From contig CAVVYR010000019.1 in assembly GCA_963752475.1 (NCBI GenBank), positions 141,996 to 205,995 on the forward strand: a stretch of 64,000 bases of DNA, given 5' to 3'. Position numbers and translations under genes: made by a program. The notes under the pieces were generated by a model, which was given only the letters and a program-made list of their open reading frames with translations, did not search any database and was not told the origin of the DNA. Source of the stretch: an uncultured Chloroflexia bacterium. GTDB taxonomy: Bacteria > Chloroflexota > Limnocylindria > Limnocylindrales > CSP1-4. This document shows, piece after piece, positions 46,317-56,828 of the stretch; the stretch's first letter is position 1; each line of letters starts with the position of its first letter.

Positions 46317-46706
46317 GTGTTCTACCTGGAGACCTCCGCGGCCACGAAGTTGGTGCTCGTGGAACGAGGCTCGGCCGCGCTGCGTCGCTGGCTCGCACCT
46401 CGTGTCTCGGCCGTGTTTTCGAGTGACCTCCTGAGAACGGAACTACTCCGCGTGGCTCGCCGTTCTTCGCCGGATGACATCCTGCAGGCCCGTGAGGTCC
46501 TCGATTCGATGCCGCTGTCGGGCTTGTCCACGGAGTTGTTCGAGCGGGCGGCACTGTTCGAGCCGAGGCAGATGCGTAGTCTCGATGCCCTGCACCTGGC
46601 TGCCGCGATGGAGGCCGGCACGGATCTCGATGGGATCATCACCTACGACGCCCGTCTATCGGAGGCGGCCGAGGGCCTTGGCGTCAACGTGATCAGCCCT
46701 CGGTAG
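46317..46706 (+). CDS. vapC: VapC PIN-domain toxin
   Basis: YLETSA, RTELLR, RSLDALHLA and TYDARL motifs. Confidence 0.9.
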   Translation: MFYLETSAATKLVLVERGSAALRRWLAPRVSAVFSSDLLRTELLRVARRSSPDDILQAREVLDSMPLSGLSTELFERAALFEPRQMRSLDALHLAAAMEAGTDLDGIITYDARLSEAAEGLGVNVISPR

Positions 46707-47718
46707 CCTCGTCGTCGGGCGGCAGCGGCTCGGAGTTGACCTCGCCCTCGGTGAAGAGATCCATGAGGATGGGGTAGATCTCGTCGAACTTGCCCGTGTT
46801 CACCGCGTCATCGACCATGTTGTGGCCCAGGCCCATCTCCTCGGGCCACTCGTAGACCGAGGCGCTGGCGCCACCTTCCTGCCAAGCCGAGACGATGGCC
46901 TCCACCGTCTCGGGCTTGACCGCGCCGTCATTCGGGTTGGTCGTGAGCACCACGTGCTCGGCGGTGTGCGGTTCCGTGCGCGCCTGCTCGAGGGTGACCA
47001 TGCCCAACCGGATGAGCTGCGCGACCGCGTGCGATGACAGCTTGGGGTAGCCGTAGTCGGGCGGGATGGTCTCCTTCTTGCCCGGGTCCCACCAGTACTG
47101 GATGTCCGGCACCGAGGTGACGGCGTTCACGACCTGCGTCGCGAACCAATCGGGGATGGGACGCAGGTTGACCATCGGCGCCAGGCCTACGACATGGTCG
47201 ACCTCGGGTCGGTTCTGGGCGGCCCAGACCGCGGCCACACCACCCGCCGAGAGCCCGCCCACGACGACGCGCTCGCCGAGACCTTCGGCGATATCGATGG
47301 CTTCGTCCGTGGTGCGCACCAGATCCTCGGCCGTGAGCTTGCCCTGGTCGGTCGACAGCTTGTCCACGTATCCGTGATAGGGGTAGCGGGGTACGAGCAC
47401 GTTCCAGCCGATCTCATGGAGGTCCGCGCCGAGGCGCCGGTACATGTACGGGCAGTTGGTGTAGCCGTGCAGCAGGACCACGGTCGTCTCCACCGGCTCG
47501 TCGTGGATCATCGACCACGACTCGCAGCGCTCGTCGATGGCCTCGTCGTCCCGCGCCTCGACATCGGCCCAGCGTGCCAGCGCCTCCTCGCGGGAAGTCG
47601 CCGGATCCGGTTGCGCGGTCAGTGAGTCCGCACCCAGCGGCTTGAGGGTCACGTACAGCAGGAACCCGCCGACGATGACCAGGACCACGACGAGGATGAC
47701 GACGAGTGCGCGCTTCAT
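46693..47718 (-). CDS. Membrane-anchored alpha/beta hydrolase (esterase-like)
   Basis: N-terminal TM, LLHGYTNCP, GLSAGG, NPNDGAV and LGHN motifs. Confidence 0.88.
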   Translation of the reverse strand: MKRALVVILVVVLVIVGGFLLYVTLKPLGADSLTAQPDPATSREEALARWADVEARDDEAIDERCESWSMIHDEPVETTVVLLHGYTNCPYMYRRLGADLHEIGWNVLVPRYPYHGYVDKLSTDQGKLTAEDLVRTTDEAIDIAEGLGERVVVGGLSAGGVAAVWAAQNRPEVDHVVGLAPMVNLRPIPDWFATQVVNAVTSVPDIQYWWDPGKKETIPPDYGYPKLSSHAVAQLIRLGMVTLEQARTEPHTAEHVVLTTNPNDGAVKPETVEAIVSAWQEGGASASVYEWPEEMGLGHNMVDDAVNTGKFDEIYPILMDLFTEGEVNSEPLPPDDEATEG

Positions 47719-47728
47719 GCGCTGCAGG

Positions 47729-48333
<605 letters not shown>

Positions 48334-48334
<1 letters not shown>

Positions 48335-49782
48335 CACTTGGTCTCCTGATCGCTGCTGCCGTAGATGGCCTCGGCCTCTGCCAGCGCGCTCAAGACCGCA
48401 CCGGCCTTTGCCGCTACCTCTGCCGATTCGCGCTCTGGCACGGAGTCGGCCACGATGCCGGCGCCGGCGTGGACGAAGGCCGTGCCGTCCTTGAGCACCA
48501 TCGAGCGGATGGTGATGGCGGCCTCCACGTCATCGGGGGCGAAGAAGCCGATGGCACCGCCATACGGACCGCGCTGTTCGCGCTCGTGTTCGGCGATGGC
48601 CTGCATGGCGCGGACCTTGGGCGCACCCGATAGCGTCCCCGCCGGGAACGTCGAACGGACCGCGTCGAAGGCGTCCCGCCCCTCGGCCAGCTCGCCTTCG
48701 ACCTCGGACACGATGTGCATCACGTGCGAGTAGCGCTCGATGGCGTGGAGCGAGGCCACGCGCACCGAGCCCGGGGTGGCCACGCGCCCGACATCGTTGC
48801 GCGCGAGGTCCACGAGCATGGCGTGCTCGGCCAGCTCCTTCTCGTCGGCCAGCAGGTCGTCCTCGAGCGCCTGGTCCTCGACCGGGTCGGTCGAGCGGGG
48901 CCGGGTGCCGGCGATGGGTCTCGTGGAGACGACGCCGTCGCGCACGCGTACGAGCAGCTCGGGGGAGGCGCCCAGCACCGAGCGATCGGGCCCCAGGTCG
49001 ATGGCGAAGAGATGCGGCGAGGGGTTGATGCGCCGCAGCGAGCGATAGATCTCGAGCGGACCGACCGAGCAGGGCAACTCGAAGCGTCGCGCCGGCACCG
49101 TCTGCAGCATCTCGCCTGCGTGGATGTCGGACACGAGCGTGGCCACGATCTCTTCGTAGCGAGGGTCGGCGGCAGGGGGCGTGTGCTTCGCGGCCGCTGC
49201 CGGGATCGGCACCGAGGCCTCGATGGCGCAGGGCGTGCCCAGCATCTCGATGGCCTCGTCGAGGCGGTCCTGCGCTCCGGGTCCGTCGAGGGTCGAGACC
49301 GTCGCGGTCTGGGACAGGTGGTCGAAGACGACGAGCGAGTCGGGCAGGTGGAAGAGCGCCAGCGGCAGCCCCACCGGGTTGGCCTTTGGCACCGGCAGCA
49401 CCGGTTCGAAGCGCGCCGCCGACTCGTACGAAAGGAAGCCCACGCCCGACGCCAGCGAGACCGGCAACGAGCCGGTGGCGGGCGCGTCGGGCAGCAGCCG
49501 GCGCAGTGCCTCGAGCGGGTCGGTCGCGGGGAAGCGATCGATCTCGGCGTAGTCGTGCGTGCGCACGATGGCCTGCTCTCCCTCGACCGACATGATGCGG
49601 CCACGCACGCCGACCATCGAGTAGCGGCCGTAGCGAGCGCCACCTTCGACCGACTCGAGGATGAACGCGAGGCGGTCCTGGTCGTGCAGACGGAGCGCGG
49701 CCGCGACCGGACTGATGGTGTCGGCAGAGATCTCGACGGCGGCGACGCCGGCGAGCCCTGGCCGAGGGAGTTGGGTGGTCAT
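48334..49782 (-). CDS. trpE: Anthranilate synthase component I family protein (TrpE/PabB)
   Basis: LESVEG, SPELLV, RPIAGTRPR, EHAMLVDLARND and FPAGTLSGAPK motifs. Confidence 0.85.
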
Positions 49783-49791
49783 GGTGTCCTT

Positions 49792-50220
49792 CTAGGGTGT
49801 CTCGTGCTCGTGGAGGTAGTCGATGGCTTCGAGATACCCGCGCCAACCGTGGCCCATGATGCGATGGCTGACGATCGGCTCGATGACCGAGACGCGGCGC
49901 CATTCCTCGCGCGCCATGATGTCGCTGATGTGGATCTCCACGACCGGGCACTCGGCTCCGGCGAGCGCATCGTGGATGGCGTACGAGTAGTGGGTGAAGG
50001 CACCGGGGTTGATGACGATGGCGTCGTAGTCGCGCTCCTCGATGCGGTCGATGAGTGCGCCCTCGTGGTTCGACTGGAAGGCCGCGAGGGAGTGCCCCCG
50101 CGCGGCGGCATGGTCGGCCGCGGCCGACTCGACGTCGGCTAGCGTGGTCGTGCCGTAGACCTCCGGCTGGCGCACCCCGAGGCGACCGAGGTTGGGGCCG
50201 TTGAGCAGCAGGATCCTCAC
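49792..50220 (-). CDS. aroQ: Type II 3-dehydroquinate dehydratase
   Basis: LNGPNL, PEVYG, QSNHEG, NPGAFTH and EIHIS motifs. Confidence 0.95.
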   Translation of the reverse strand: MRILLLNGPNLGRLGVRQPEVYGTTTLADVESAAADHAAARGHSLAAFQSNHEGALIDRIEERDYDAIVINPGAFTHYSYAIHDALAGAECPVVEIHISDIMAREEWRRVSVIEPIVSHRIMGHGWRGYLEAIDYLHEHETP

Positions 50221-51824
50221 CGGGTCGCCTCCGCGCTGATGTGGGCGATGGCCGCGTCCAGCTCCGCCTCGGAGACGTCGTCGACGTCGACCACGGTCCC
50301 GATGGCCATGGGCAGGATCCAGCGCTGGCGGCCTTTGATGCGCTTCTTGTCCGTGGTCAGCGCTCGCTTCACGACCGCCGCATCGAACTCGCGCGTGAGC
50401 TCGTAGCCGAGGCCGGCGCAGGCGTCGTCGATGCGTTCGGCCAGGCCCTTCTCGGCGCCACGGCCGGCGGCGATGTGCGCGACCGCACGCAGGCCCAGTA
50501 CGACGGCCTTGCCGTGCGGCAGGCGGTAGCCGCTTTCGATCTCGAGCGCGTGGCCCAGCGTGTGGCCCAGGTTGAGCGTGCGTCGTTCGCCGCGCTCGAA
50601 GGGGTCGCGGTCGACGACGTCGAGCTTGAGCTGCACGGAACGGTCGATGATGGCGTAGCGGGCAGCCTCGTCGTTGCGCAGCGCGGCCTTCCCACGGGTC
50701 TCGACGAGCTGCCACAGCGCAGGGTCGCCGATGATTCCGGACTTGAGCGACTCGGCCATGCCGTCGAGCCGGCGCGACCGTGGCAGCGTCCGCTGGGTGG
50801 CCACGTCACCGACGATGGCGGCCGGTGGCCAGAAGGCACCGGCCGCGTTCTTGGCGCCTGAGAGGTCGACCGCGACCTTGCCGCCGATGGCCGCGTCGGT
50901 CATGCCCAGCCAGGTGGTCGTGACGGCCACGAAGTTCACGCCCCGCACGTAGAACGCCGCGGCCGCGCCGACCATGTCCGTGGTCACGCCCCCACCGACG
51001 CCGACCCAGGCGTCACCGCGCTCGGCACCCATGGCGCTGGCGGCCTCGAGCAGTTCGTCCACCGTGCGCAGTCGCTTCCGGCGTTCACCGGAGGGGATGT
51101 CGATGCGGCGCTCGTGCGGCAGGGCGGCCATGAGGTCGGGCAGTGCCGCGGCCACGCGGCGGTCGGCGACCACGACCGGTGTTCCGGTGCTGGTGGGCCT
51201 CAGGATGTCCTCGTAGATCGGCTCGTCCAGCTCCATGCCCAGGACGACCCTGGCGTTGCGCGGGCCCATGAGGTGGTCGCGGCGGACCTCCGCGTCGAGC
51301 AAGCGGCGCGCCGCCGGCCTCCCGCTCGTGGCGGCATCGACGACGGCATCGACGACGGCAGATGTCGGCCGGGCGGCATCGACGCGCACATCGGCCGCTC
51401 GGTAGAAGCGCTCGCGACGCGCTCGCTGGTCCGCCAGCCGGCCGGCGGCATCGCCGCTGAGCAGCGGGCGGGTCTCAGCCTGAACGGCCAGGCGCGAGAG
51501 CAGCACCTCGTCGGGCGCGTCGAGCCAGACCACCAGCCCGGCATTCCATAGCGCCCAGCGGTTGAGCGGGTCGATGACGGCACCACCGCCGGTGGCGATG
51601 ACGGCTCCGTCGACCTCGGCAGCGAGCGCCACGGCTGCCGCCTCGTCGGCCCGGAAGGCGGCCTCGCCCCGGGTCTCGATGATCTCCGACGGATCGGCAC
51701 CCAGGCGGTCGGTGATGTCCCCGTCGAGGTCGATGAGGGGACGACCCAGCCGTTCGGCGACGGCGGCCGCGACCGTCGACTTGCCCGAGCCTGAGAGCCC
51801 GATGAGCACGATGGACTCAGGCAT
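50217..51824 (-). CDS. aroK-aroB: Bifunctional shikimate kinase / 3-dehydroquinate synthase
   Basis: GLSGSGKST and ATGGG in the N-terminal part, then DAAIGGK, AKN and LNLGHTLGHALE. Confidence 0.92.
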   Translation of the reverse strand: MPESIVLIGLSGSGKSTVAAAVAERLGRPLIDLDGDITDRLGADPSEIIETRGEAAFRADEAAAVALAAEVDGAVIATGGGAVIDPLNRWALWNAGLVVWLDAPDEVLLSRLAVQAETRPLLSGDAAGRLADQRARRERFYRAADVRVDAARPTSAVVDAVVDAATSGRPAARRLLDAEVRRDHLMGPRNARVVLGMELDEPIYEDILRPTSTGTPVVVADRRVAAALPDLMAALPHERRIDIPSGERRKRLRTVDELLEAASAMGAERGDAWVGVGGGVTTDMVGAAAAFYVRGVNFVAVTTTWLGMTDAAIGGKVAVDLSGAKNAAGAFWPPAAIVGDVATQRTLPRSRRLDGMAESLKSGIIGDPALWQLVETRGKAALRNDEAARYAIIDRSVQLKLDVVDRDPFERGERRTLNLGHTLGHALEIESGYRLPHGKAVVLGLRAVAHIAAGRGAEKGLAERIDDACAGLGYELTREFDAAVVKRALTTDKKRIKGRQRWILPMAIGTVVDVDDVSEAELDAAIAHISAEATR

Positions 51825-52602
51825 CCGAGGTCCCTCCCAGCTCCGCGTCGAGCGCGGCGCGCATGGCCTCGACCGGCGCCTCGACCCCGAGCCAGAGTTC
51901 GAGCGAGCGCCAGGCCTGGCCCAGCAGGATGGCCGCGCCTGCCTCGGCCGGGGCGCCGATCCGGCGGGCCTCCCGGACCAGGCGCGTCGGGCTCGGCCGG
52001 TAGACGAGATCGAGCACGGCCAGGCCCGGCCGCAACAGCTCCGCGGGCACGAGCGTGTCCTCGGCGCCGGTGCCGACGGGAGTGGCGTTGACCAGGAGGT
52101 CGGCGTGGGTGATCTCGGTGGCTAGCCGGCCGATCGAGCCATCGGATCGGCGCAGGATCGTGATCTGCTCGGTGCCGACCTTGCGCAGCGCCAGCTGCAC
52201 GGCAGCGCTGACACCGCCGGCACCCAACAGCAGGGCGTGGTGGACGCCGTCGGGCCGGAGGCGCTCGATGGCCTCGACCGTGGCCGGGAAGTCGGTGTTG
52301 TGGCCGATGAGCCGCTCGCCTTCGCGCACGACGGTGTTGACCGCCTCTGCCTCGCGCGCGACGTCGCTGAGCTCATCCATCTCCGCCGCGACCGCCGCCT
52401 TGTGCGGCACGGTCACGTTGGCACCGCCGGCATCGGAGCGGCGCAGCGAGGCCACGGTGGCAGGCACCTCCTCTGCCGCCACATCCGCGAGCACGTAGCG
52501 GTGGGGCAGGTCGAGCGCACTGAACGCGGCAGCCATCATCGCCGGCGACGCCGAGTAGGCGATGCCGTGACCGAGCAGCCGGAACGTCAGCGCATCGGGC
52601 AT
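51817..52602 (-). CDS. aroE: Shikimate dehydrogenase
   Basis: SASP, GANVTVPHK, AVNT, HNTD, LGAGG and VNATPVG motifs. Confidence 0.93.
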   Translation of the reverse strand: MPDALTFRLLGHGIAYSASPAMMAAAFSALDLPHRYVLADVAAEEVPATVASLRRSDAGGANVTVPHKAAVAAEMDELSDVAREAEAVNTVVREGERLIGHNTDFPATVEAIERLRPDGVHHALLLGAGGVSAAVQLALRKVGTEQITILRRSDGSIGRLATEITHADLLVNATPVGTGAEDTLVPAELLRPGLAVLDLVYRPSPTRLVREARRIGAPAEAGAAILLGQAWRSLELWLGVEAPVEAMRAALDAELGGTSDA

Positions 52603-53879
52603 CAGGCGTCCGTGCCCTCCACGACGGTCGCCTCTTCGGCGGCGTTGTCGGGCAGGGCCTCGAGCGTGCCGGCGGCCGCGTCACCACGCGGACCCTCGGA
52701 GCGGGCGCGTCGTCGACCGACGGCAGCGAGGACGTCGCCGATGGTGTCGCCACCCATGTCGGCAAGCAGGGCGTCGGCCAGGGCGATCGCGAGCATGGCC
52801 TCGCCGACCACCGCGGCGCGCGGGATGATGGCCACGTCGCTGCGCTCGATGTGGGCGCGGCGGACCTCACCGGTGGCCAGGTCGACCGAGTCCAGCGGTT
52901 TGCGCAGGGTGGCCACGGGCTTGACCGCCACGCGCGCCACGACGGCGGCGCCGTTGGTCATGCCGCCCTCGGTGCCGCCGGCGCGGTTGGTCTTGCGTTC
53001 CCAGGCCGGGGTGCCGGGCTCCACCTCGTCATGGACCCCCGATCCGCGCTTGCCGGCGGCGCCGAAGCCGATGCCGATCTCGACGCCCTTCACGGCCTGG
53101 ATACCCATCAGTGCCTCGGCCACGGCGGCATCGATGCGGGTGTCCCACTCGGCGTTGCCGCCGATGCCGATGGGCATGCCCTCGGCCACGACCACGAACG
53201 AGCCACCGACCGAATCGCCGGCATCGATAGCCGCGTCGACCTCGGCCATCATCGCCTGCTCTGCTTCGGGGTCGGGGCAGCGTAGCGGCGTCGGCTCTTC
53301 GCGATCGGCTTCGACCCAGCCCTCGGGTACGTGTGCGACGGGCTCGTCGACGCCACCGAACGCCCGCACTGGGCCCAGCTGGTCGACGAACGACCAGATG
53401 GTCACGCCACAGGCCTCGAGCAGCTGGCGGCAGACGGCGCCGGCTGCCACGCGGGAAGCGGTGGAACGAGCGGAGGCTCGCTCGAGCACGTTGCGGATGT
53501 CGCCGGTGTCGTACTTGACCGCGCCTGCGAGGTCGGCGTGGCCGGGGCGCGCGAGCGTGATCGGCTTGGGCCGCTCGGACTCGGGCGTGGGCTCGACCGA
53601 CATGCGCTCGGTCCAGTTGTCCCAGTCGCGGTTGGGGATGGAGAAGGCGAGGGGAGAGCCGAGCGTGCGCCCGAAGCGCAGACCGGCCGTCCACTGCACA
53701 CGGTCGCGCTCGATCTGCATGCGGCGACCGGAGCCATAGCCGTGTTGTCGGCGGGCGAGCTCCTCGTCGACGCCGGCGGTGGAGATCTTCAGGTCGGCCG
53801 GCAGGCCCTCGAGGATGCCCGAGAGTCCCGGGCCGTGGGACTCGCCGGCGGTGAGGAGTCGGAGTCGTCGCAGCGTCAT
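52602..53879 (-). CDS. aroC: Chorismate synthase
   Basis: TAGESHG, RPGHAD, ERASAR, AVKGVEIG, NRAGGTEGGM and ERSD motifs. Confidence 0.96.
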   Translation of the reverse strand: MTLRRLRLLTAGESHGPGLSGILEGLPADLKISTAGVDEELARRQHGYGSGRRMQIERDRVQWTAGLRFGRTLGSPLAFSIPNRDWDNWTERMSVEPTPESERPKPITLARPGHADLAGAVKYDTGDIRNVLERASARSTASRVAAGAVCRQLLEACGVTIWSFVDQLGPVRAFGGVDEPVAHVPEGWVEADREEPTPLRCPDPEAEQAMMAEVDAAIDAGDSVGGSFVVVAEGMPIGIGGNAEWDTRIDAAVAEALMGIQAVKGVEIGIGFGAAGKRGSGVHDEVEPGTPAWERKTNRAGGTEGGMTNGAAVVARVAVKPVATLRKPLDSVDLATGEVRRAHIERSDVAIIPRAAVVGEAMLAIALADALLADMGGDTIGDVLAAVGRRRARSEGPRGDAAAGTLEALPDNAAEEATVVEGTDA

Positions 53880-55225
53880 GAGGCCAGGTGCTCCATGTCG
53901 GTCCAGAAGGTGGGATAGGAGACGGCCGCGCAGGCGGGGTCGTCGATCTCAACGGTACCCGCTACGCCGGTCAGTGCGGCGACCGCGAACGACATCGCGA
54001 TGCGGTGATCGCCGTCGGTGCGGATCGCGGCGTCCCGGGGCGCACCCTTCGACACGATCCAGCCGTCCTCGCGCTCCTCAGCCACGGCGCCGATGGCCTG
54101 CAGCCCTTCGACGACACGGGTGATGCGATCGGATTCCTTGATCCGCAGTTCGCGGGCGCCGCTGAGGGAAGATGTACCCTCGGCCGCGGCCATGGCCATG
54201 GCGATGAGCGGGAGCTCGTCGATGACGTCAGCCACGCGGTCGCCCGACAACTCGATGGCCCGCAGCGGCCGGCCACCCGAGACGATGATCGTGCCGACCG
54301 GCTCTGGGCACCACTCGGTAGGTCCGTCCGATGCGACCCTGATGTCGGCACCCATGTCTCGCAGAACGTCGATGATGCCCGTGCGCGAGGGGTTCAGGCC
54401 GACTTCCTCGATGACGATGTGCGCGTCCGGGTGCAAGGCGCCCGCGACGAGCCAGGCGGCGGCACCGGAGATGTCACCGGGCACATCGATGGTGCGGGCC
54501 CTGAAGCCGGCCGGCCCCTCGACGCTGGTGACGTAGCCCTCGCGACGGACCGGGGCGCCAAGCCAGGCGAGCATGCGCTCGGTGTGGTCGCGCGTGGGGC
54601 CCGGCGAGACGATGGTCGTCGTGCCCTGGGCGGCCAGCCCGGCCAACGTCAGCGCCCCGATGACCTGGGCGCTCGCGATCGGCAGCTCGTGCTCGGTCGC
54701 GAGCAGCTCGCGTGAGCCTTCGACGAGGATCGGTGCGTGGCCGTCCTCGGTCACGATGTGGGCGCCGACCGTGCGCAGGGGCGCAGCGACGCGCTCCATG
54801 GGTCGGCTCGTGAGCGAGGCGTCACCGCGGAGCGTGGCCTGAGCAGGGCGGCCGGAGAGTGCGCCGATGAGCAGGCGCATGGCCGTGCCGGCATTGCCGC
54901 AGTCGAGCATCTCGCCGCCCGCACCCGGCAGCACCGCCGCCTTGGCTGTGCCTCCACCGCGGATCCGGACCCGCGTGTAACCGACCGGCCCTTCGCCGAT
55001 CGACTCGACCGCGCCCAGCGTCTGGAGCACGTGCGCCATCGAGAGCACGTCCTCGCCGGGGCGGACGACCGTCACCTCGGCCTCGCCCTCGGCCATGGCG
55101 TTGAAGAGCAGGGCTCGATGCGCGACCGACTTGTCAGCCGGCAAGCGCAGCCCCCCGACGAGTGAGGCCGCGGCACTGACCGCGCCTCCGGCGTACGCGC
55201 CTTGAGCCCCTGCCTCATCGTTCAC
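53876..55225 (-). CDS. aroA: 3-phosphoshikimate 1-carboxyvinyltransferase (EPSP synthase)
   Basis: DKSVAHR, GNAGTAMR, RPM, SAQV, RDHTE, KESDRI and DHRIAM motifs. Confidence 0.96.
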   Translation of the reverse strand: MNDEAGAQGAYAGGAVSAAASLVGGLRLPADKSVAHRALLFNAMAEGEAEVTVVRPGEDVLSMAHVLQTLGAVESIGEGPVGYTRVRIRGGGTAKAAVLPGAGGEMLDCGNAGTAMRLLIGALSGRPAQATLRGDASLTSRPMERVAAPLRTVGAHIVTEDGHAPILVEGSRELLATEHELPIASAQVIGALTLAGLAAQGTTTIVSPGPTRDHTERMLAWLGAPVRREGYVTSVEGPAGFRARTIDVPGDISGAAAWLVAGALHPDAHIVIEEVGLNPSRTGIIDVLRDMGADIRVASDGPTEWCPEPVGTIIVSGGRPLRAIELSGDRVADVIDELPLIAMAMAAAEGTSSLSGARELRIKESDRITRVVEGLQAIGAVAEEREDGWIVSKGAPRDAAIRTDGDHRIAMSFAVAALTGVAGTVEIDDPACAAVSYPTFWTDMEHLAS

Positions 55226-56601
55226 CGGGCGGCTCCCCCGTCCACGGCGACGGGCTCCTCGGACGCAGCGGCACCGGCAGCCGCGGCGTCGGCGGCCGCG
55301 CCACGCCGCTGGGCCGAGCGCGAGACACGCAGGATGGCCCCGAAGACCATCTCGCGTTCCTCGGGTGTGAGCACGCCCTCCTCGCCGGCGTGGCTGGCCT
55401 TCTCGATGAGCTCTCGCTCACGGGTCACGTCGTGGCCGTGGTCACCGGCCTCACGCGTCTGCTGGACCGCCACCGAGAGCTCGGCGCGCTCCTCGATGAG
55501 CGCCGCGATACGTGAGTCGACGTCGTCGATGCGGGCGCGCAGACGCTTGCGCTCGACCGGTGCCTCGATGTGTGTCTGGGCGTGCGAGGCGGTCGGCTGG
55601 CGCAGGTACTCGTGGCGACGAAGGTCGTCCATGAGATCGCCGAACTCGGGGAACGAGAGCGACTGCTCCGAGTCCGAGCGCGCCGCGGGCGGGTCGGGAT
55701 GGACCTCGATGATGATGCCGTCGGCTCCGACCGCGGCACCGGCGACGGCCAGCGGACGGACCAGCGGACGATGACCGGTCCCGTGCGAGGGGTCCACGAT
55801 GATGGGCAGGTGCGTGCGCTCCTGGATGACCGGCACGGCCGAGAGGTCGAGCGTGTTGCGCGTGGAGGTCTCGAAGGTGCGGATGCCGCGCTCGCACAGG
55901 ACGACGTTGGGGTTGCCCGAGCTGAGGATGTATTCAGCGGCCATGAGCAGCTCGTCGACGGTGTTCGACAGACCACGCTTGAGCAGGACCGGCTTCCTCG
56001 ACTGGCCGACGGCCTTGAGCAGGACGAAGTTCTGCATGTTGCGCGCGCCGATCTGGAGCATGTCGACGTACTCGTCGAAGACCCCGACGTCCGCCGGGTC
56101 GGTGATCTCGCTGACGACGGGCAGGTCCGCCTCGGCCCCGGCCTCGGCCAGCAGCTTCAAGCCCTCGACGCCGAGGCCCTGGAAGGCGTAGGGGGACGAA
56201 CGCGGCTTGAAGGCGCCGCCACGCAGCAGGGTGGCGCCCTCGCGCTTGACCCAGTTGGCGGTGGCCACGACCTGCTCGCGTGATTCGACCGCGCAGGGTC
56301 CCGCGATGACCGCCAACGGCGCACCCGCGCCGATCTCGACCCTCCTCCCGACCCGGATGCTCGTCCTTCCGGGATGGTGCTCTACCGAGGCCAACTTGTA
56401 GGGTTTGGAGACGCGGATCATCTGTTCCACGCCGGGCATGGTCTGGAGGTGCTGGACACGCTCCACGCCGACACCGACGACGCCCATGACGATGCGCTCC
56501 TCGCCCACCATCACGTAGGTCTCGAGGCCCTCCTCGGCGACGGCCTGCTTGACGTCGTCGATCTCGTCGGGTGCTGCGCCGGTGCGCATCACGATGATCA
56601 T
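55222..56601 (-). CDS. aroF: Type I-beta DAHP synthase with an N-terminal ACT-like domain and a C-terminal chorismate mutase (AroQ-class) domain
   Basis: MIIVM N-domain, AGPCAVES, KPRSSPY, IGARNMQN, LKRG and DPSH, then LRARIDDVD...DVTRERE. Confidence 0.93.
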   Translation of the reverse strand: MIIVMRTGAAPDEIDDVKQAVAEEGLETYVMVGEERIVMGVVGVGVERVQHLQTMPGVEQMIRVSKPYKLASVEHHPGRTSIRVGRRVEIGAGAPLAVIAGPCAVESREQVVATANWVKREGATLLRGGAFKPRSSPYAFQGLGVEGLKLLAEAGAEADLPVVSEITDPADVGVFDEYVDMLQIGARNMQNFVLLKAVGQSRKPVLLKRGLSNTVDELLMAAEYILSSGNPNVVLCERGIRTFETSTRNTLDLSAVPVIQERTHLPIIVDPSHGTGHRPLVRPLAVAGAAVGADGIIIEVHPDPPAARSDSEQSLSFPEFGDLMDDLRRHEYLRQPTASHAQTHIEAPVERKRLRARIDDVDSRIAALIEERAELSVAVQQTREAGDHGHDVTRERELIEKASHAGEEGVLTPEEREMVFGAILRVSRSAQRRGAAADAAAAGAAASEEPVAVDGGAAR

Positions 56602-56671
56602 CTCGGTACCACCTTCGTCCTGCTCTTGGTGCTGCTCGTGTCGTTCGTCCTGGGAGTCCGCGCCTCGAGGC

Positions 56672-56705
56672 AAACAAAAAACGCAGGCCCCCCAGGGTCC
56701 TGCGT
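56672..56705 (-). terminator. Intrinsic terminator (attenuator) in the aro operon leader
   Basis: ACGCAGG-ACCCTGGGGGG-CCTGCGT followed by TTTTTGTTT on the minus strand, upstream of aroF. Confidence 0.85.
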
Positions 56706-56758
56706 CAGCGGGCACGAGTGCCTCTGCCGCCGGGATCTACCCGGCCGCCTCGTACCCG

Positions 56759-56788
56759 CTAGCTAAAGTACCAATACTGGTAGGTCAT
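56759..56788 (-). CDS. Aromatic leader peptide MTYQYWYFS
   Basis: ATG ACC TAC CAG TAT TGG TAC TTT AGC TAG. 5 of the 8 post-Met codons are Tyr/Trp/Phe. Lies between the promoter and the terminator. Confidence 0.85.
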   Translation of the reverse strand: MTYQYWYFS

Positions 56789-56798
56789 GCTGCGGCGG

Positions 56799-56828
56799 AC
56801 ACTAGCGGAGCGCCAGCACCCCTGTCAA
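56799..56828 (-). promoter_or_regulatory. Sigma70-type promoter of the aro operon leader
   Basis: TTGACA-N18-TAGTGT, 10 nt before the leader ATG. Confidence 0.8.

Follow-up and report, generated by a model that had tools for sequence, protein, structure and literature searches.

A likely ribosome-mediated attenuator with tyrosine, tryptophan and phenylalanine codons ahead of a common aromatic pathway operon in Limnocylindria

The window analysed here, i.e., the whole 64,000-nt stretch of a contig from an uncultured bacterium of the Chloroflexota class Limnocylindria, carries on its minus strand an eight-gene operon which combines the common aromatic pathway with trpEG. Its first gene encodes a three-domain protein (Pfam PF18152, PF00793, PF01817) with an N-terminal ferredoxin-like domain, a DAHP synthase (DAHPS) and a C-terminal chorismate mutase. 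Pfam describes this chorismate mutase domain as type II. The NCBIfam assignments return the gene order that an earlier note on this DNA had listed: aroF-aroA-aroC-aroE-aroKB-aroQ-trpE-trpG. In at least 14 genomes of the same genus, trpE lies about 7 kb downstream of the DAHPS gene on the same strand and contig, and the other trp, phe and tyr genes lie outside the operon. A compact leader region precedes the first gene, and its features are given with those of the operon in Table 1.

Table 1. Leader and operon features, in window coordinates
Feature	Position	Strand	Details
Promoter (predicted from sequence)	56799..56828	-	-35 TTGACA 56828-56823, 18-nt spacer, -10 TAGTGT 56804-56799
Leader micro-ORF MTYQYWYFS*	56759..56788	-	ATG 56788, stop TAG 56761-56759
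Micro-ORF aromatic codons	TAC 56782, TAT 56776, TGG 56773, TAC 56770, TTT 56767	-	
Stem P1	56706..56761	-	lower stem 11-13 bp, nested hairpin ~56748-56726, internal loop GCAGAGGCA
Intrinsic terminator (predicted)	56672..56705	-	stem-loop 56705-56681, then U6-G-U3 to 56672
Spacer, terminator to first gene	56602..56671	-	SD-like GAAGGUGG before ATG at 56601
DAHP synthase-chorismate mutase, 459 aa	55222..56601	-	NCBIfam NF006421, 465 bits
Operon genes after DAHPS, aroA through trpG	47729..55225	-	
aroA	55225-53876	-	NCBIfam
aroC	53879-52602	-	NCBIfam
aroE	52602-51817	-	NCBIfam
aroK-aroB fusion (aroKB)	51824-50217	-	NCBIfam
aroQ	about 50220-49792	-	NCBIfam
trpE	49782-48334	-	NCBIfam
trpG	48337-47729	-	NCBIfam

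Only 10 nt separate the end of the -10 box from the ATG of a nine-codon micro-ORF, in which each aromatic amino acid has one to three codons and four of the last five sense codons are Tyr, Trp, Tyr and Phe. Stem P1 follows at once, its 5' arm beginning within the micro-ORF stop codon: AGCGGGUACGAG (56760-56749) pairs with CUCGUGCCCGCU (56718-56707) in 12 pairs, one of them G.U, and a GCCGGG/CCCGGC hairpin is nested inside. Directly behind it lies the terminator stem-loop, ACGCAGG(A)CCC-UGGG-GGGCCUGCGU. The earlier note had described this same succession (i.e., promoter, aromatic peptide 10 nt later, 12-bp stem opening in the stop codon with its nested hairpin, then a GC stem with a U-tract), and each element lies on the minus strand where that note had placed it. 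A simple consensus scanner called neither the leader promoter nor the terminator. The -10 box matches TATAAT at only three of six positions and the terminator stem is bulged.

The 141-nt leader folds at -71.1 kcal/mol (z = -3.26 against 200 shuffles). Folded singly, P1 reaches -39.4 kcal/mol, of which the lower stem accounts for about -21 kcal/mol, and the terminator reaches -17.9 kcal/mol. An intrinsic terminator between the leader ORF and the genes is thus indicated by sequence, by energy and, as described below, by conservation.

The window's genome contains one copy of this leader. A strict scan of the 4.25-Mb assembly for a TTGACn-N16-19-TAnnnT promoter followed by an ORF of 4-25 codons and a stable hairpin with a T-run gave no second locus, and only two short ORFs genome-wide have both an aromatic triplet and, within 130 nt, a T5 run. 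The arrangement is not due to chance. Public RNA libraries add little: 22 runs contained at most 0.18 of the sampled words. Contigs from four RNA-library runs cover 56480-56813, 56571-56725 and 56672-56822, so that the leader is covered and the terminator bridged. However, they cover the promoter too and may therefore be DNA carry-over, showing neither a start, an end nor transcription.

Searching 185,579 species genomes with the RNA motif gave 105 matches, mostly in metagenome-assembled genomes titled Limnocylindria or Chloroflexota. A micro-ORF ending in W-(F/Y/S)-(F/Y)-x-stop is present in 100 of these 105 copies, with an ATG start in 99, and there are 62 distinct leader peptides. The relatives behind these and the following counts are non-independent samples. 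Among 104 unique leaders, TGG occupies codon -4 in 102, Phe or Tyr codon -3 in 98, and Phe or Tyr codon -2 in all 104; the positions ahead of this aromatic cluster vary freely. Exchanges between Phe and Tyr use TTT, TTC, TAC and TAT, i.e., both synonymous codons of each amino acid. All three aromatic amino acids occur together in 95 of the 99 ATG-started leaders. This is conservation of a coding type, in which the ATG, the frame and the stop are kept, indels are of 3 nt, and Phe and Tyr interchange along with their synonymous codons.

The place of the leader is also fixed. The DAHPS start lies 64-179 nt downstream, measured from a GTG in the 3' arm of P1, in 104 of 107 unique motif copies. With the micro-ORF found in 100 of 105, these counts describe what is expected of an attenuator, an ORF with end-product codons upstream of the first biosynthetic gene. 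Looking from the protein side, 28 of 30 DAHPS loci of relatives have an aromatic micro-ORF, and the remaining two encode a 53-59% identical paralogue. Sister genera carry a second leader type (type 2), with Phe and Tyr codons only, upstream of DAHPS. The promoter is held in register with the ORF: among the type-1 leaders with 50 nt of upstream sequence, 99 of 100 have TTGACn-N16-19-TAnnnT ending 8-12 nt 5' of the ATG. For this reason, the micro-ORF is probably leaderless or nearly so, which bears out the earlier description of it as essentially lacking a Shine-Dalgarno (SD) sequence.

The RNA structure is conserved as pairing. The consensus fold consists of P1 and the terminator, with 99.4% of cells paired and eight pairs changed on both sides; none of 500 shuffles matched these values, and slid controls were 33-47% paired. 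Covariation is clearest in the nested hairpin (column 66/82: CG 52, GC 48; column 70/79: AU 64, GC 35, CG 4) and is also present in the upper terminator stem, which varies along with its loop while pairing is retained; the lower terminator stem is invariant. Sequence conservation is unusually high in the lower stem of P1 and in part of the internal loop, and since the 105 pattern matches were picked by their P1 arms, the invariance of P1 among them is partly by construction. Leaders found through the protein instead show one compensatory change from G-C to A-U (L141) and changes from U.G to C-G (L144, L145) in this lower stem.

Spacing is tight. Parsing succeeded for 124 of 133 leaders, which belong to two types distinct in sequence; in every one of the 124, P1 begins 2-5 nt after the aromatic cluster and is separated from the terminator by 0-4 nt. 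Among 93 type-1 leaders, the former distance measures 5 nt in 79, and the other 14 have 3 nt. The earlier note had proposed comparing the regions upstream of orthologous DAHPS genes and looking for covarying stems. That comparison finds the aromatic micro-ORF, stem, terminator and promoter all conserved, and pairs covary both in the nested hairpin and in the upper terminator stem. As far as sequence comparison can establish it, then, the micro-ORF is coding, its aromatic codons are under selection, and P1, the predicted terminator and the predicted promoter have a fixed place before DAHPS.

The codon content of the leaders appears to follow the pathway. In the window's genus, trpE-trpG is within the operon and 102 of 104 leaders contain TGG. 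Relatives with 1.1-Mb genomes (family f2) have an operon that stops at aroQ, and their leaders contain Tyr and Phe codons and no Trp codon; trpE was found in 0 of 16 of these genomes, PF00425 in 0 of 5, and trpB gave a match only below cut-off. In sister genera, trpE is elsewhere, behind a T-box-like leader whose matches are full-length yet sub-threshold (68 and 63 bits against a gathering score of 93), and 22 of 25 DAHPS leaders lack Trp. The T-box family (RF00230) has no match in the window, nor in the whole genome at E <= 0.001. The link between the Trp codon and trpE is not strict, e.g., genus g11 has T-W-Y-F leaders though its trpE is about 13 kb off on the opposite strand.

These comparisons make a ribosome-sensed aromatic leader well supported, and we consider it likely that the element attenuates transcription of the common aromatic pathway and trpEG by a ribosome-mediated mechanism. 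We infer how the element switches and in which direction it regulates: most likely, the pathway would be raised when Trp, Tyr or Phe runs short. Transcription would begin a few nucleotides ahead of the leader ATG, and a ribosome would translate the nine codons, meeting Tyr, Trp, Tyr and Phe near the end. When charged tRNA-Trp, tRNA-Tyr and tRNA-Phe are ample, the ribosome would enter P1, reach the stop codon in its base and depart, after which the terminator right behind P1 would stop most transcripts at about 115 nt. When any of the three charged tRNAs is short, the ribosome would stall on the aromatic codons, read-through would increase and the eight-gene operon would be switched on.

The classical form of such a switch uses an antiterminator, and the earlier note had discerned none by eye. 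We withheld the 3' arm of the terminator and masked the 5' end stepwise in 12 leaders, of which 11 were counted (five type 1, six type 2; L051 was excluded since its outer helix was taken for the terminator). With the ribosome at the stall positions, the terminator 5' arm had no upstream partner in any of the 11, so computation likewise yields no stall-dependent antiterminator exclusive with the terminator, while the same test recovered that of E. coli trpL (-9.3 kcal/mol, five paired nucleotides). Full-length minimum-energy folds with a masked 5' end do not discriminate, because the terminator persists in every case and does so in E. coli trpL too. The control codons also lie outside the 5' arm of the first hairpin, since the cluster ends before P1. 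Upstream, the terminator 5' arm can pair only with the stretch of aromatic codons (-4 to -9.6 kcal/mol), and this stretch is available only when the ORF is ribosome-free; taken alone, this pairing would reverse the regulatory logic. The earlier claim that one leader integrates Tyr, Trp and Phe to control the common pathway gains from conservation and codon content, but it is weakened by the lack of an antiterminator.

With low confidence, we favour a steric mechanism for the switch. A stalled ribosome would sit at the base of an intact P1, which folds away the next 50 nt and would leave the terminator base only 0-4 nt from the mRNA entrance of the ribosome. Polymerase and ribosome could not share this junction, so the lower terminator stem could not close and read-through would follow. 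The conserved spacing in 124 leaders of two types and the roughly -21 kcal/mol of the P1 lower stem count in favour, and the ribosome and polymerase dimensions used are general background values. The fuller proposition is that this is an antiterminator-free steric attenuator, present in two sequence types across the class Limnocylindria, with a codon set tuned to the pathway (a Trp codon where the operon includes trpEG, none in relatives for which no Trp pathway could be found). It is tentative, and we think it unlikely to hold as a whole.

Also unlikely is a classical attenuator of only seemingly unusual geometry, whose 2:3 helix, weak or assisted by a factor, forms on stalling and escaped our folding. 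Such a helix could pair CUCGU of the P1 3' arm with ACG(C)AG of the terminator; this pairing shows up in constrained folds, and both segments are invariant in 104 leaders, as expected of sequences with two alternative partners. The leader also has a full-length match to Rfam RF02502 (Atu_C8) at 36 bits (E = 5.5e-5 over 2.5 kb), short of its 50-bit gathering score; Rfam gave no gathering-level match anywhere in the window. The Atu_C8 consensus has UGGUGG and a stem-then-terminator layout, and from this consensus we infer Atu_C8 to be the Agrobacterium/Rhizobiales trp attenuator RNA, in which the Trp codons likewise end a few nucleotides before the big stem. However, at -2.9 to -6.4 kcal/mol the candidate helix is weaker than both the terminator (-17.9) and a competing local hairpin (-7.7), and type-2 leaders have no equivalent. 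Consensus folding with the P1 5' arm masked left merely a 3-bp contact. The helix also requires a 5' mask to about nt 39-40, which corresponds to a ribosome at the stop codon rather than on the aromatic codons, and thus gives the reversed logic.

More improbable still is a drop-off switch, in which the stalled ribosome leaves with a peptide of 4-7 residues and the bare ORF pairs with the terminator 5' arm, blocking the terminator, while a ribosome that runs on would melt P1 and permit termination. Unmasking the ORF does let 7-11 nt of the terminator 5' arm pair in 10 of 11 parsed leaders (3 nt in L026), with energies comparable to the trpL antiterminator in the same test. In this reading, pairing of the ORF with the purine-rich terminator 5' arm would prolong P1. 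Although it appears in constrained folds, we rejected it as a selected helix because shuffled ORFs equal it (mean z = +0.62 for 102 type-1 and +0.27 for 31 type-2 leaders), so it reflects base composition only. This switch would further depend on the timing of ribosome release relative to polymerase movement, and untranslated transcripts would be expected to read through constitutively.

We regard it as very improbable that the leader is an independent small gene, i.e., a dual-function sRNA/peptide of about 115 nt that acts in trans on other aromatic genes like rnTrpL, while the operon would rely on a second promoter or on constitutive read-through. The strong promoter, very stable structure and strong terminator would suit such a gene, the remaining trp, phe and tyr genes lie outside the operon, and the S. 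meliloti trp attenuator RNA, described as acting in trans on trpDC (PMC6614838), offers a precedent. Against independence, DAHPS follows 104 of 107 copies, and both leader types share this position; the spacer also lacks a promoter-like site (by a scanner also blind to the leader's own promoter), and a trans role would add to attenuation in cis rather than replace it. A riboswitch-like P1 that binds a ligand or protein, with an incidental micro-ORF, is extremely improbable: it would account for the sequence conservation of the lower stem and part of the internal loop, but the ORF is conserved in a coding manner, P1 is a plain hairpin whose lower stem covaries in leaders not selected by pattern, and no Rfam family matches at threshold.

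Three further candidates were rejected. A DAHPS N-terminal extension starting at the GTG in P1 (56715) is open here and shares the DAHPS frame, but the GTG is in frame in only 36 of 104 leaders (open in 27), the one-third that chance would give. Translational control by SD sequestration does not fit a terminator-to-gene spacer that differs in length and sequence among relatives, and GGUACCGAG, which resembles the P1 5' arm and lies near the DAHPS start, is found in the closest relatives only. A +1 or -1 frameshift into the UAG of the nested loop fails because that stop is not conserved in type-1 leaders.

Under the attenuator reading, the Chloroflexota join the bacteria in which a leader peptide attenuates the first shikimate enzyme, and here a single leader would cover Trp, Tyr and Phe together, in an operon uniting the common pathway with trpEG. 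Two conserved leader types have a sensor and a terminator, tight conserved spacing and no alternative helix that we could find, which makes a non-classical switch (steric or dependent on drop-off) directly testable. The relatives also show regulatory turnover, with a T-box-like leader at trpE in sister genera, a Trp codon in the DAHPS leader here, and none in the leaders of relatives that gave no trpE match. For annotation, the 8-12-codon ORFs of such leaders escape gene callers.

Among known systems, the steric reading is closest in principle to pyrBI, where the ribosome physically hinders the terminator hairpin, and tnaC, where it hinders access of the termination factor; neither involves a choice between RNA helices, and control lies in the ribosome's physical position. 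In both, the ribosome is on or beside the blocked site in the linear sequence, whereas here a folded helix lying between them would bring ribosome and terminator together, an arrangement of which we know no other case. With E. coli trpL, pheL and hisL, the leader shares the succession of end-product-codon ORF, first hairpin, intrinsic terminator and biosynthetic genes. In trpL, however, the Trp codons UGGUGG are the first six bases of the first-hairpin 5' arm and a stall frees a 2:3 antiterminator, whereas here the codons end 2-5 nt before a hairpin that abuts the terminator, no stall-specific antiterminator was found, and the ORF has no SD sequence and probably no 5' UTR. In thrL and ilvL, the codons of one leader peptide cover more than one end product of a branched pathway; these leaders have eight or more control codons and classical alternative helices, compared with a single Trp codon and two to four Tyr/Phe codons here. 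Atu_C8 and rnTrpL of S. meliloti, as the latter is described in PMC6614838, likewise combine a short ORF, a large stem with nested hairpins and a terminator, but beyond structure and terminator they have no sequence relationship to this leader.

The novelty implied in the earlier note was overstated, since two leaders of aroF have been published, and these are the only ones found in the literature searched. Searches on leader peptides and tryptophan attenuation in Chloroflexi gave nothing on this element, judged by titles and abstract openings, and Seliverstov et al. (2005), in its account of Actinobacteria, gives no RNA element for Phe or Tyr operons. The Acholeplasma uORFC-13-1 motif, as presented in PMC8632094, has a uORF containing Phe codons, with a promoter immediately before it and an intrinsic terminator adjoining, and occurs solely upstream of aroF, its authors leaving the mechanism open in that account; it is a Mollicutes motif, U-rich and Phe-only, likened here by description alone. 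Closest is aroR of C. glutamicum (Neshat et al. 2014, as described in PMC11802643 and PMC7356990), which has a Phe-Tyr-Phe leader upstream of aroF. Ribosome stalling under Phe limitation is reported there to raise operon transcription, and one of the two, a review, has this control unaffected by Tyr availability. By the description in PMC11802643, both systems have a short leader peptide gene with consecutive aromatic codons directly before a DAHP synthase gene, a likeness of description alone between Actinomycetota and Chloroflexota. In contrast to aroR, the leader here has a near-invariant Trp codon and stands before an operon of eight genes, comprising the entire common pathway and trpEG.

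Directly behind a predicted promoter, the window's aromatic operon is preceded by a micro-ORF rich in aromatic codons, a large hairpin (P1) and a predicted terminator. We read this leader as a pan-aromatic leader-peptide attenuator, an interpretation which is well supported by sequence comparison. The earlier note had described the minus-strand promoter, micro-ORF, stem, terminator and genes, and it was right in all details that we checked. The 5' arm of P1 begins within the micro-ORF stop codon, and only one to two nt separate P1 from the terminator. The leader folds at -71.1 kcal/mol (z = -3.26); in isolation, P1 reaches -39.4 kcal/mol, of which the lower stem is worth about -21, and the terminator reaches -17.9 kcal/mol. 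The DAHP synthase (DAHPS), the first gene of the operon, carries a ferredoxin-like domain at its N-terminus and a chorismate mutase domain at its C-terminus. At the far end of the operon, an alpha/beta-hydrolase ORF (46693-47760, minus strand) shares 32 nt with the end of trpG.

Features of the window's leader and operon (window positions) and of related leaders (locus positions)
Feature	Position	Strand	Basis
Predicted promoter: TTGACA, 18 nt, TAGTGT, then 10 nt	56828-56823, 56804-56799	-	sequence
Micro-ORF: ATG ACC TAC CAG TAT TGG TAC TTT AGC TAG = MTYQYWYFS	56788-56759	-	sequence
Stem P1: AGCGGGUACGAG with CUCGUGCCCGCU around nested GCCGGG/CCCGGC hairpin		-	sequence, folding
Predicted terminator: ACGCAGG(A)CCC-UGGG-GGGCCUGCGU + U6GU3	end 56672	-	sequence, folding
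DAHP synthase, 459 aa	start 56601, 70 nt past terminator	-	
aroA, aroC, aroE, aroK-aroB fusion, aroQ, trpE, trpG, after DAHPS		-	
trpE leader, sister genus g11, about 270 nt, with GGGTGGCACCGCG box	L179:228-498	+	
trpE leader, sister genus g3, about 270 nt, with GGGTGGCACCGCG box	L181:177-452	-	
Type-2 leaders, plain DAHPS, same family	L146-L151, L159-L178		
Type-2 leaders, family f2	L024-L031		

The window leader is not a product of chance. The window belongs to contig C19 of a 4.25-Mb assembly (38 contigs, 88.8% complete, rated 5.83% contaminated), and its leader was the sole result when this assembly was scanned for a TTGACn/TAnnnT promoter with a 4-25-codon ORF and a stable hairpin with a T-run. 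The P1 stem motif likewise has one copy in the genome. Short ORFs with an aromatic triplet and a T-run within 130 nt number two genome-wide, the second being MFVWFCVCVFYWDFY (contig C4 of the window's genome G000, plus strand, about 211627). The genome also holds a second, plain DAHPS (55-56% identical) which lies directly behind another ORF and has no leader (C2:9490-10521 and C3:9283-10296). The two copies are identical over the 560 nt compared, so this pair is an assembly duplicate or contamination.

Aligning the DNA upstream of orthologous DAHPS genes, as the earlier note had suggested, showed that the aromatic micro-ORF is kept and that the nested hairpin and upper terminator stem covary. 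When the window's DAHPS was used as a query against 41 related genomes, 37 matched, and we read the upstream DNA of 30 returned loci. Each of the 21 same-genus orthologous loci has a micro-ORF, 8-10 codons long (e.g., MTKYWYFS, MTRYWYFS, MVRYWSFS, MTQQFWFYA, MSIFTWFYA and MFVTHYWFYA), while seven loci of f2, a sister family with genomes of about 1.1 Mb, encode MTTYRYFRSPV, MANRFYFRYPA or MHRHRYYFRYPA. In the remaining two loci, which belong to paralogous DAHPS genes with 53-59% identity, there is no micro-ORF.

A second route used an exact pattern built from both P1 arms, searched against one-genome-per-species contigs from 185,579 species. It gave 105 matches, most of them in MAGs titled Candidatus Limnocylindria, Limnocylindrales, Chloroflexota or Chloroflexia; by a rough estimate, a 21-base pattern should hit 596 Gb a handful of times by chance. 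W-(F/Y/S)-(F/Y)-x stands immediately 5' of TAG in 100 of the 105, and these type-1 leaders (99 ATG-started) encode 62 different peptides, with F, W and Y all present in 95. Two matches have CGG or GGG in place of the Trp codon, and three (L047, L081 and L113) have no micro-ORF, L047 and L081 looking like chance matches. Motif-bearing records titled as Steroidobacteraceae, Myxococcales, Thermoanaerobaculaceae, Ignavibacteriales or Actinomycetota MAGs are found among L047, L052, L055, L081, L089 and L098. Several such contigs carry a DAHPS 62-87% identical to the window's, and the oddly titled motif-bearing contigs are probably mis-binned.

Across 104 unique type-1 leaders, the fourth codon before the stop is TGG in 102, the third is TTT (66), TAC (23), TAT (7), TCC (6) or TTC (2), and the second is TAC (58), TTT (29) or TAT (17), with free variation further upstream. 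Start, frame and stop are constant, length shifts occur in whole codons, Phe and Tyr swap freely and synonymous codons are used, all of which argues for selection on codons rather than on an RNA helix. The DAHPS start (M-I-I/V-V-M) lies 64-179 nt past P1 in 104 of 107 unique copies. A promoter was found in 99 of 100 leaders, and its -10 box ends just 8-12 nt before the ATG (10 nt in 74), leaving no room for a Shine-Dalgarno sequence; the micro-ORF is thus probably leaderless or nearly so. We also considered a GTG at 56715 (minus strand, in the P1 3' arm) as the start of an extended DAHPS. Its frame, behind GAGG, runs stop-free through the terminator into DAHPS in the window's genome (a 497-aa ORF), but it is in frame in 36 of 104 relatives, i.e., at chance level, and was rejected.

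The consensus fold of the 104 leaders comprises P1, its nested hairpin and the terminator. In this alignment 99.4% of cells are paired, and eight pairs, mainly in the nested hairpin, vary on both sides (e.g., CG 52/GC 48 and AU 64/GC 35/CG 4). None of 500 shuffles matched the observed pairing values, and slid partners gave 33-47% pairing. Note that the search pattern itself accounts for part of the constancy of the P1 lower stem among these leaders. Leaders of family f4, which came from the protein route, show one compensatory G-C to A-U and two U.G to C-G changes in P1, so P1 is a slowly changing helix.

A class-wide protein search (151 genomes, 110 with a match; six unpublished genomes are counted, but no data were drawn from them) found DAHPS fused to chorismate mutase in the window's genus and family f4, and plain DAHPS in other genera of that genus's family. 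In 25 of 25 loci fetched, plain DAHPS is preceded by a leader that differs from type 1 but is related to it (type 2), and the family f2 leaders are also of this type. Its ORF has 11-12 codons (GTG-started in L175, as read by eye) with FYFY, FFFY, FYF or Y-x-F clusters and ends in Pro-Ala-TGA. The stop codon lies in the middle of the stem (CCCGGCAUGACC/GGUCGUGCCGGG, with a nested hairpin inside), and the terminator is GCAGAGG.../...CCUCUGC-U6 (type-2 alignment A2). An exact type-2 pattern matched 43 of 81 family genomes (one unpublished) and its reversed control matched none; it occurs once per genome, except in one genome where two small contigs carry identical copies. In families f3 and f5 (L149, L152-L158), DAHPS lies directly behind another ORF (ending ...IPVPGAL...CIRVL...WNT...), possibly an AroH-type chorismate mutase, so that a leader, if there is one, would be placed upstream of that ORF.

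In 23 of 31 type-2 leaders (e.g., L147:291-402) the micro-ORF stop overlaps an ATG (ATGA). The second frame so opened has 6-7 codons, and in all 23 its stop falls in the apical loop of the nested hairpin, as it does by eye in 42 of 43 published pattern rows. TAG, TGA and TAA all occur there, the frame survives 3-nt indels, and the five f2 leaders, with CTGA in place of ATGA, still close that frame in the loop. One possibility is a second mini-ORF coupled to the first; another is a fail-safe stop barring reinitiating ribosomes from the terminator.

Leader codon content tends to follow gene content. Members of the window's genus keep the leader Trp codon almost without exception, and at least 14 of their genomes have trpE on the DAHPS strand, about 7 kb further downstream. 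The f2 operon ends at aroQ, and f2 leaders have Tyr and Phe codons without Trp. Among the f2 genomes searched (G025-G040, about 1.0-1.4 Mb, incomplete), TrpE was found in 0/16, a chorismate-binding enzyme (PF00425) in 0/5 that are 91-93% complete, and trpB only below the cut-off (about 140 bits vs 392); these streamlined relatives may be tryptophan auxotrophs. In the sister genera, trpE sits 13-24 kb away on the opposite strand behind a T-box-like leader, with full-length, sub-threshold T-box matches of 68.4 bits (g11) and 63.3 bits (g3) against a gathering score of 93. The window's genome gave no T-box match. Trp is absent from 22 of 25 sister-genus DAHPS leaders; the three exceptions, all of genus g11, read T-W-Y-F, so the link between Trp codon and trpE is a tendency rather than a rule.

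An aromatic sensor in the micro-ORF and an effector in the predicted intrinsic terminator are well supported, and we infer, by analogy with known attenuators including aroR, that starvation would raise read-through. How the two communicate is less clear from folding. Full-length folds with a masked 5' end retained the terminator whatever the mask, and this test is useless because the E. coli trpL terminator persists likewise. We therefore left out the terminator 3' arm, lengthened the 5' mask 3 nt at a time and read the partners of the terminator 5' arm. The trpL control recovered its antiterminator (-9.3 kcal/mol, 5 paired bases) solely at 39-48 nt masks, which correspond to a ribosome positioned on the Trp codons, and lost it from 51 nt, with the ribosome at the stop codon.

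In 11 leaders (5 type 1 and 6 type 2; a sixth type-1 leader, L051, was misparsed and is omitted), the same test left the terminator arm without any partner upstream when the mask matched a stalled ribosome. When the whole alignment was folded to a consensus with the P1 5' arm masked, a 3-bp contact was all that formed. The sole candidate helix, CUCGU/ACG(C)AG (-2.9 to -6.4 kcal/mol), requires a ribosome at the stop codon. The sole consistent upstream partner is the run of aromatic codons (-4 to -9.6 kcal/mol), which can pair only when the ORF is empty and does so no better than shuffled ORFs. The earlier note could see no unambiguous antiterminator by eye, and constrained folding agrees. The attenuator it proposed is supported as regards the conserved aromatic micro-ORF, stem and predicted terminator before DAHPS, with no antiterminator helix recognised.

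Since P1 and the terminator have no bases in common, we propose a steric switch that needs no antiterminator helix, although we consider it unlikely. In all 124 parsed leaders (of 133) of both types, 2-5 nt separate the end of the aromatic cluster from P1, and P1 ends 0-4 nt before the terminator. Counted from the P-site, a ribosome opens mRNA to about +11 and shields it to about +15. When the last aromatic codon occupies the A site, the ribosome would therefore abut an intact P1, and any further step would start to melt P1. The stalled state would have P1 intact and the fed state P1 unwound. An intact P1 would loop out about 50 nt, placing the terminator base within a few nt of the stalled ribosome's mRNA entrance. 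A terminator stem must close in the polymerase exit channel, to about 8 nt from the RNA 3' end, and a ribosome-polymerase collision might keep its lower part open, while a ribosome that passed through P1 and left would leave the terminator unhindered. The conserved spacings, the high stability of P1 and the lack of an alternative helix fit such a switch.

Related systems are known. Two papers describe Corynebacterium glutamicum aroR, a Phe-Tyr-Phe leader peptide 5' of aroF said to increase transcription on Phe, not Tyr, limitation (PMC11802643, PMC7356990). The Acholeplasma uORFC-13-1 motif places a Phe-codon uORF beside a terminator solely before aroF (PMC8632094), the trp attenuator RNA of S. 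meliloti has an additional role in trans (PMC6614838), and Seliverstov et al. 2005 found that Phe and Tyr operons of Actinobacteria had no RNA element (PMC1262725). The literature searched yielded no leader peptide of this kind in Chloroflexota. Rfam's Atu_C8 matches the window leader at full length but below threshold (36 vs 50 bits), which reflects a similar layout, not membership. Three features go beyond routine here: a codon set for three amino acids that is tuned to operon content, a leader of two forms spread across the class and, most notably, a conserved architecture in which no antiterminator can be recognised. In E. coli trpL the Trp codons open the first hairpin, whereas in the window leader the aromatic codons end before P1.
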